Assembly: GCF_030384885.1 (NCBI RefSeq)
Contig: NZ_CP128613.1
Source: Escherichia coli
GTDB lineage: Bacteria > Pseudomonadota > Gammaproteobacteria > Enterobacterales > Enterobacteriaceae
Strand: one strand, 5' to 3'
Length of the DNA stretch: 64,000 bases
In this document: positions 14,420 to 15,352 of the stretch, in pieces
Numbering within the stretch: position 1 is the stretch's first letter
Layout: each line of letters opens with the position of its first letter
Program-made: the position numbers and the translations under genes
Notes under the pieces: model-generated
The model's input: the letters and a program-made list of their open reading frames with translations, nothing else
Databases searched by the model: none
What the model was told of the DNA's origin: nothing

Positions 14420-15352
14420 ATGTTACATAAAAAAACGCTTCTTTTCGCAGCATTATCCGCCGCTCTTTGGGGTGGTGCAACACAGGCCGCAGATGCTGCC
14501 GTTGTCGCTTCGCTTAAACCCATTGGGTTCATCGCATCTGCCATTGCTGATGGGGTAACAGAAACGGAGGTTTTACTTCCTGACGGCGCTTCAGAACATG
14601 ATTATTCACTGCGTCCATCAGATGTAAAACGCTTACAGAACGCGGACTTAGTTGTTTGGGTTGGCCCGGAGATGGAAGCGTTCATGCAAAAACCGGTAAG
14701 TAAATTACCTGAAGCCAAACAGGTAACGATTGCGCAGCTAGAGAATGTGAAACCGCTGCTGATGAAAAGTATTCACGGCGATGATGATGATCACGACCAC
14801 GCGGAAAAAAGTGACGAAGATCACCATCACGGCGATTTCAACATGCATCTTTGGCTTTCCCCAGAGATAGCGCGGGCTACAGCGGTTGCAATCCATGGAA
14901 AATTAGTGGAACTTATGCCGCAAAGTCGAGCCAAACTTGACGCCAACCTGAAGGATTTTGAGGCACAATTAGCCTCAACCGAAAAGCAGGTTGGTAACGA
15001 GCTCGCGCCGCTCAAGGGGAAAGGTTATTTCGTTTTTCACGATGCTTACGGCTATTTCGAAAAACAGTTCGGACTGACACCGCTTGGTCATTTTACCGTT
15101 AACCCTGAGATTCAACCTGGCGCGCAGCGTTTACATGAAATAAGAACACAGTTGGTTGAGCAAAAAGCAACCTGCGTTTTTGCTGAGCCACAGTTCAGGC
15201 CAGCGGTCGTTGAGAGCGTCGCACGAGGGACATCCGTTCGTATGGGAACGTTGGATCCCCTGGGGACGAATATCAAACTGGGTAAAACAAGCTATTCAGA
15301 ATTCCTGAATCAATTAGCCAACCAGTATGCGAGCTGCCTGAAAGGAGATTAA
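14420..15352 (+). CDS. znuA: Zinc ABC transporter periplasmic binding protein
   Basis: Track ORF trimmed to Met at [12 protein letters not shown] (310 aa, signal peptide); His/Asp-rich loop [21 protein letters not shown]. Confidence 0.92.

Follow-up and report, generated by a model that had tools for sequence, protein, structure and literature searches.

One Zur box and a His/Asp-rich ZnuA loop at the znuCB-znuA zinc-uptake locus of Escherichia coli

Results

Gene content of the znu locus

The znuA gene described here was read in a 64-kb stretch of E. coli DNA, the whole of which we refer to as the window, where it sits in the gene order ruvA, ruvB, znuB (-), znuC (-), znuA (+), mepM (+), lpxM (+), pykA (-). 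Its open reading frame of 933 nt begins with ATG and runs for 310 codons to a TAA stop. The frame coincides with the PGAP-annotated znuA of the E. coli strain 2013C-4282 chromosome (NZ_CP027579.1), to which a 1151-nt stretch around the gene is 100% identical, and the earlier note had placed znuA at exactly the coordinates of the annotated CDS. Genes for the ZnuC and ZnuB equivalogs lie directly upstream and are divergently transcribed, with a 4-nt overlap between the znuC stop and the znuB start. The coordinates of all features are collected in Table 1.

Of 5426 complete E. coli genomes, 5425 contain the 1151-nt stretch with at least 95% identity, and the annotations there are always znuC, znuA and mepM. 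One genome of the 5426 has no match to the znuA region, and in one complete genome a second copy of the region is plasmid-borne. A scan of the whole window against Rfam and a tRNA scan returned no RNA element at or near the znu locus, so none competes with a reading of the spacer as a protein-operator region.

Table 1. Features of the znu locus, with positions counted from the first letter of the window
Feature	Position	Strand	Description	Basis
znuB	12804..13589	-	ZnuABC zinc importer permease subunit, 261 aa	NCBIfam equivalog NF007089, 534 bits vs cutoff 284; annotated znuB in identical record
znuC	13586..14341	-	ATPase subunit, 251 aa	NCBIfam equivalog NF007090, 532.8 bits vs cutoff 306; annotated in identical record
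Divergent znuCB/znuA control region	14342..14419		78 bp, 69% A+T	
Predicted two-dimer Zur coverage	14364..14394		approximate 31 bp, box plus 4 bp on each side	inferred from PMC4219657
Zur box	14368..14390		23-bp pseudo-palindrome GAAATGTTATAATATCACACTTC, centre 14379	consensus match and weight matrix
Putative extended -10, znuA promoter	14372..14380	+	TGTTATAAT, TGn plus TATAAT (14375-14380), 39 nt upstream of ATG	pattern search
Putative extended -10, znuCB promoter	14376..14384	-	TGATATTAT, TGn plus TATTAT, 34 nt upstream of znuC ATG	pattern search
znuA	14420..15352	+	periplasmic zinc-binding protein, 310 aa precursor	ORF, NCBIfam, Pfam, K-12 alignment, structures
Putative signal peptide	14420..14497	+	residues 1-26	mature crystal chain 2osv_A starts at query residue 27
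Glu59-His60 codons	14594..14599	+	primary zinc site ligands	residues present in sequence
His/Asp/Glu-rich flexible loop	14774..14836	+	residues 119-139; holds (GAT)4 run at 14780-14791	
His143 codon	14846..14848	+	primary-site ligand, just after loop	residue present
His207 codon	15038..15040	+	primary-site ligand	residue present
mepM (yebA)	15368..16690	+	zinc-dependent M23 murein DD-endopeptidase	NCBIfam NF008652, 891.6 bits
Intrinsic-terminator-like hairpin	16706..16740	+	9-bp stem, 6 G-C pairs, T tract; 3' of mepM	

Away from znu, several other features of the window were recorded. Between yebB and ruvA, at 9188-10859, lie two genes annotated as "hypothetical protein" (349 aa and 194 aa), whose GC content is 37-46% where the flanking DNA has about 50-55%. 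Pfam and PADLOC gave no match for either gene, and the segment is present in only 19 of the 5426 complete genomes; it has the look of a small accessory insertion that few strains carry. Rfam models placed the overlapping antisense sRNAs SraC/RyeA (-, 175 bits) and SdsR/RyeB (+, 114 bits) at 33757-33901, between yebY and pphA, and a full-length cspA-type thermoregulator (135 bits) at 49391-49851, across yobF and a cold-shock-family gene that the identical record annotates as cspE. The record with 100% identity to the tested stretch lists yoaE, a gene for a CNNM-family cation transport protein at about 55025-56580, as a pseudogene carrying a frameshift.

ZnuA and its metal-binding residues

By every test run on its sequence, the gene product is ZnuA. 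With the NCBIfam ZnuA equivalog NF007091 it reaches 525.6 bits (cutoff 268) over residues 2-308, the Pfam family PF01297 scores 222 bits against 29, and the protein matches the solved E. coli ZnuA structures PDB 2OGW and 2OSV/2PRS/2PS0/2PS3/2PS9 over their full length. Aligning it with K-12 ZnuA, as the earlier note had proposed, gave 305 identical residues out of 310 (98%) and an unchanged loop. From this degree of identity to the characterised K-12 protein, we assume that the ZnuA of the window would likewise bind and transport zinc specifically and with high affinity. The N-terminus has, by eye, the typical basic-hydrophobic-AxA pattern, and residue 27 is the first of the mature chains in the crystal structures, which fits a signal peptide of 26 residues.

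The residues E59, H60, H143 and H207 are all found in conserved contexts; in the E. coli ZnuA structures, H143 and H207 are the remaining two ligands of the primary site. The primary zinc site of E. coli ZnuA is described as a 3His+1Glu coordination that includes His60 (PMC9175090). Four residues before H143 ends the loop of residues 119-139, in which 6 His, 8 Asp and 2 Glu are packed into 21 residues, so that it holds 6 of the 13 His of ZnuA. The loop is identical in K-12 ZnuA. It had been described beforehand as a flexible, metal-binding loop around 14775-14840; the position proved right to within a few bases (14774-14836), and the described property is supported by the identity with K-12 together with published work on this protein family (PMC9175090).

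Variation in the loop is slight. The 131 nt around it occur at 95% identity or more in 5425 of the 5426 genomes, and among the matches listed for this stretch the lowest, at 96.8%, differs by a single-codon length change. This match comes from strain NCCP 13717, which carries (GAT)3 instead of (GAT)4 at Asp121-124, so that its ZnuA is 309 aa long and lacks one Asp; judged by sequence, this allele looks like a rare repeat slippage inside the metal-binding loop. Long His-rich loops are a constant feature of Gram-negative zinc-specific binding proteins, and in E. coli and Salmonella they bind the metal at secondary zinc sites, with the Salmonella loop inserting into ZinT (PMC9175090). According to the same review, the exact role of the loop, whether as scavenger, sensor or partner-recognition element, is still unsettled.

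A single Zur box in the znuCB/znuA spacer

Read on the opposite strand, 14339-14341 is the znuC ATG, leaving a spacer at 14342-14419 whose measured length of 78 bp is the one given in the earlier note. Within it lies the AT-rich palindrome at 14368-14390. By a scripted count, 18 of its 23 positions are self-complementary (9 of the 11 arm pairs). An inverted-repeat finder run on the spacer recovered no more than the 9-nt core ATGTTATAA/TTATAATAT, since the outer arms contain imperfections. The published 23-bp Zur box consensus of the gamma-proteobacteria is GAAATGTTATA-N-TATAACATTTC (PMC4219657). The box agrees with it at 20 of the 22 specified positions, with 2 mismatches, and is the only match at up to 3 mismatches in the window; 100 dinucleotide-preserving shuffles contained none.

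We also built a symmetric weight matrix from the Zur sites of K-12 zinT, ykgM and pliG, excluding the znu site itself to avoid circularity, and scanned both strands. The znu box scores 25.2 bits of a maximum of 33.5, and the independent site that ranks next in the window reaches 10.7 bits. In a set of 100 random 64-kb sequences, best scores had a mean of 11.9 bits and a maximum of 24.9, and none reached 25.2. The remaining candidates in the window (at 20467, 51555 and others, all at 10.7 bits or less) fall below the random mean best of 11.9 and were dismissed. In the spacer there is a second positive score, 11.4 bits at 14363-14385, which is the same site offset by 5 bp, and beyond the box and this echo a scan of 14335-14425 found no further positive-scoring site. 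The Zur-type motif that the earlier note had expected a matrix scan to reveal in the spacer is therefore there, at 25.2 bits, and its description as a single operator holds on the consensus count as well. The box is invariant across four aligned E. coli sequences, K-12 included.

The structure-based purine/pyrimidine skeleton of Zur sites is written RNNNY-xxx-RNNNY or, over 18 bp, RxxxYRxxR*YxxYRxxxY. The 18-bp version overlaps the box in four registers, starting at 14363, 14368, 14371 and 14373, of which the register 14371-14388 encloses the central TATAAT. With 267 occurrences in the window, this skeleton (RNNNYRNNRYNNYRNNNY) alone is weak evidence. Tyr45 of Zur contacts the central TATA, which is absent from the Fur box and so distinguishes Zur boxes (PMC4219657).

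On the znu operator, Zur gives a 31-bp footprint, and on the crystallised 31-mer two dimers, (Zur2)2, are bound cooperatively on opposite faces of the DNA (PMC4219657). The 11.4-bit echo at a 5-bp offset fits the two overlapping dyads of such a dimer of dimers. The operator sequence string was not found in PMC4219657, so we infer the corresponding 31-bp interval (14364-14394). Zinc-dependent binding, and derepression once zur is mutated, have been shown for the K-12 operator (PMC4219657), and the sequence identity suggests that both would carry over to the operator studied here. Repression by Zur in vivo at znuC is about 7-fold, which is modest compared with zinT and L31p (PMC4219657). A partial recognition sequence for ZntR is also reported to overlap the Zur box, with apo-ZntR speeding the release of Zur (PMC11618457); given this overlap, Zur may not be the sole protein acting at the znu box.

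Opposed promoter elements and the rightward unit

A targeted search found two opposed TGnTAnnnT elements, both within the Zur box. Their putative -10 hexamers, one for znuA and one for znuCB, share 5 of 6 bp on opposite strands at the box centre. A generic scan of 14250-14500 for sigma-70 -35/-10 promoters and terminators found no terminator, and no canonical promoter pair because the -35 hexamers are poor. The location of the candidate elements agrees with the orthologous promoters of Y. pestis, where Zur sites overlap the -10 elements (PMC2706843). If they function as read from the sequence, two opposed extended -10 elements in one box would explain how a single operator acts both ways, and they offer a simple physical reason for two-way control. 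That one operator must serve both directions had been the claim of the earlier note, and it accords with the literature, in which E. coli Zur recognises one element of the two-way promoter between znuA and znuCB (PMC2706843, citing Patzer & Hantke; PMC11618457).

To the right, only 15 nt (15353-15367) separate the znuA stop from the mepM start, and no terminator-like site was found in this gap. Terminator-like sites on the + strand at 15460-15480 lie within the mepM coding sequence, have a weak T tail and were discounted. The strong hairpin that follows mepM is likely, from its sequence, to mark where the rightward unit ends. For mepM/yebA, co-transcription with znuA has been proposed, and induction of mepM by zinc starvation in E. 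coli has been cited, with a Zur-independent internal promoter for mepM left possible (PMC6381278). The short gap lacking a terminator and the hairpin after mepM are consistent with a Zur-controlled znuA-mepM transcript of this kind (PMC6381278). Reading the arrangement in this way, mepM is probably co-transcribed with znuA under Zur control, and the operator probably governs znuCB to the left and znuA-mepM to the right.

An upstream ATG in the spacer

The sole difference between the window and the K-12 spacer is at 14407, 17 bp outside the Zur box, with G here and T in K-12. The G completes an ATG at 14405 that is in frame with znuA and lies five codons before its annotated start, about 18 nt from the predicted transcription start. 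We rejected the idea that this difference is specific to one strain, because no other spacer sequence is as common in E. coli as that of the window, which 4182 of the 5422 genomes with a match carry unchanged, and the K-12 T is also carried by strain F5. At this position it is K-12 that is atypical of E. coli. If the upstream ATG were used, the ZnuA signal peptide would be 5 residues longer, or the codon could compete with the annotated start and tune translation unlike in K-12; we regard either outcome as unlikely. This widespread ATG, missing from K-12, is the only slightly unexplored detail of the locus.

Discussion

ZnuABC and Zur together are the model case of femtomolar zinc sensing, and ZnuA acts as a virulence factor where the host withholds zinc, making the locus biologically important. 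We are highly confident that the DNA described here is the chromosomal znuCB<->znuA(-mepM) zinc-uptake locus of E. coli, operating as described for K-12. Gene families, identity to K-12 and the literature all agree on this point and none of our measurements speaks against it, so that the earlier note was right to call it a textbook locus. Gene identities and the loop, like the sequence, the uniqueness and the K-12 identity of the operator, were computed in this work.

For the way in which the locus operates, we draw on the literature for Zur binding, its stoichiometry, repression and metal binding by the loop, and on sequence for the two -10 elements and the co-transcription of mepM. We propose that when zinc is sufficient, two Zn-loaded Zur dimers would bind the operator at 14368-14390 cooperatively, covering about 31 bp around 14379. 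The bound complex would block RNA polymerase in both directions by way of the overlapping -10 elements TGTTATAAT (znuA) and TGATATTAT (znuCB). As zinc falls, Zur would shed its regulatory zinc and leave the DNA, and both units would be transcribed. ZnuA would then be exported by means of its 26-residue signal peptide, hold Zn2+ in the interdomain site formed by Glu59, His60, His143 and His207, and hand the metal to the ZnuB2C2 importer. The loop of residues 119-139, which adjoins the primary site, would provide a further zinc site, flexible and weaker, where the metal is captured and passed on to the primary site, and it may also be the docking surface for the accessory protein ZinT.

The paralogue that reads the palindrome is the point at which a Zur-based account could be challenged. 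All boxes of the Fur family are AT-rich inverted repeats, a consensus match alone cannot name the paralogue, and a skeleton such as RNNNYRNNRYNNYRNNNY, at 267 occurrences, does not discriminate; on these grounds the palindrome could be a site for the iron regulator Fur, or for another Fur-family or AT-rich-DNA binder, with znu not zinc-controlled through it. However, the consensus matched at 20 of 22 positions is specific to Zur and the match is unique in 64 kb, the 25 bits were obtained with a matrix built solely of other proven Zur sites, the Tyr45-contacted central TATA missing from the Fur box is present (PMC4219657), and the operator sequence is identical to the K-12 operator that served for footprinting and crystallisation with Zur in that work. 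We give a non-Zur identity virtually no chance. With Zur as the regulator, control of znuA and znuCB could still be separate, through an operator for each or an extra regulator site in the 78 bp. Y. pestis has two Zur-protected regions in its 73-bp znu spacer (PMC2706843), a partial ZntR dyad is reported to overlap the box (PMC11618457), and mepM promoters inside znuA have been left open (PMC6381278). Set against these precedents are the one positive matrix site in 14335-14425 with its 5-bp-offset echo, a spacer too short at 78 bp for two non-overlapping operators of 23-31 bp and two promoters, the single protected region reported for E. coli (PMC2706843, PMC4219657) and the position of both candidate -10 elements within the one box. 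Separate control is, in our judgement, very improbable, and we retain one shared Zur operator, where "single operator" is a statement about one DNA element in E. coli and not about one Zur dimer.

The loop invites a different objection, namely that the His/Asp-rich stretch is a neutral low-complexity insertion that arose through slippage in GAT/CAC repeats and does not bind metal. Slippage does happen, given the (GAT)4 run and the (GAT)3 of one genome, and the role of the loop is called not established in PMC9175090. Conservation of the stretch speaks against neutrality: in 5425 of 5426 genomes the 131 nt in and around it keep 95% identity or more, the lowest listed match shows only a one-codon length change, and the K-12 loop is identical. 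His-rich loops are, moreover, constant in Gram-negative zinc binders, and those of E. coli and Salmonella bind zinc, the latter also entering ZinT (PMC9175090). The chance that the loop is neutral seems to us close to nil, and we continue to read it as a metal-binding element.

Taken together, znuA, its His/Asp-rich loop and the Zur operator are real, correctly read and already known from K-12. The ZnuA and Zur-box features that can be checked by sequence were all found, the export signal and the overlap with the promoters as putative ones, and for K-12, which is identical or 98% identical here, zinc affinity, Zur binding and transcription starts are established. As everything at the locus repeats established knowledge of E. 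coli K-12, its practical use is as a positive control, one in which reading raw sequence alone placed the gene, the functional loop and the operator to within a few bases.

The closest known system is that of E. coli K-12 MG1655 (znuA b1857, znuCB b1858-b1859), which shares with the window the order ruvAB - znuB - znuC <-> znuA - mepM - lpxM - pykA. Its spacer is likewise 78 bp long, with an identical Zur box and one different base, and its ZnuA differs by the five conservative substitutions V35I, G98E, D108N, T189K and S297N, none of them in the loop or at ligand positions. Other E. coli Zur operators (zinT, ykgM/L31p and pliG) resemble that of znu in being 23-bp pseudo-palindromes with a central TATA-type core. 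The K-12 sites of these genes match the consensus at 16-19 of 22 positions, whereas the znu site matches best, at 20 of 22. The znu operator is nonetheless reported to be among the weakest binders and the least repressed, at about 7-fold versus 560-980-fold at other E. coli Zur operators (PMC4219657), and it is the only one of them to serve two divergent promoters.

Further afield, the ZnuA of Salmonella enterica (PDB 2XQV/2XY4/4BBP) shares its fold and family with the protein described here (E about 1e-165) and, like E. coli ZnuA, has a His-rich loop beside a 3His+1Glu site; in Salmonella, ZinT docks through this loop (PMC9175090). The Salmonella protein is the orthologue of a different genus, the sequence of its loop differs from that in the window, and the interaction with ZinT was shown for it, whereas for the E. 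coli ZnuA of the window the interaction is presumed. In Yersinia pestis, znuA and znuCB are also divergent across a short spacer of 73 bp, with a Zur box of the same consensus and repression by Zur in both directions (PMC2706843). The two systems differ in that Y. pestis shows two separate Zur footprints, of which one alone contains the Zur box, whereas a single protected region is reported for E. coli (PMC2706843).
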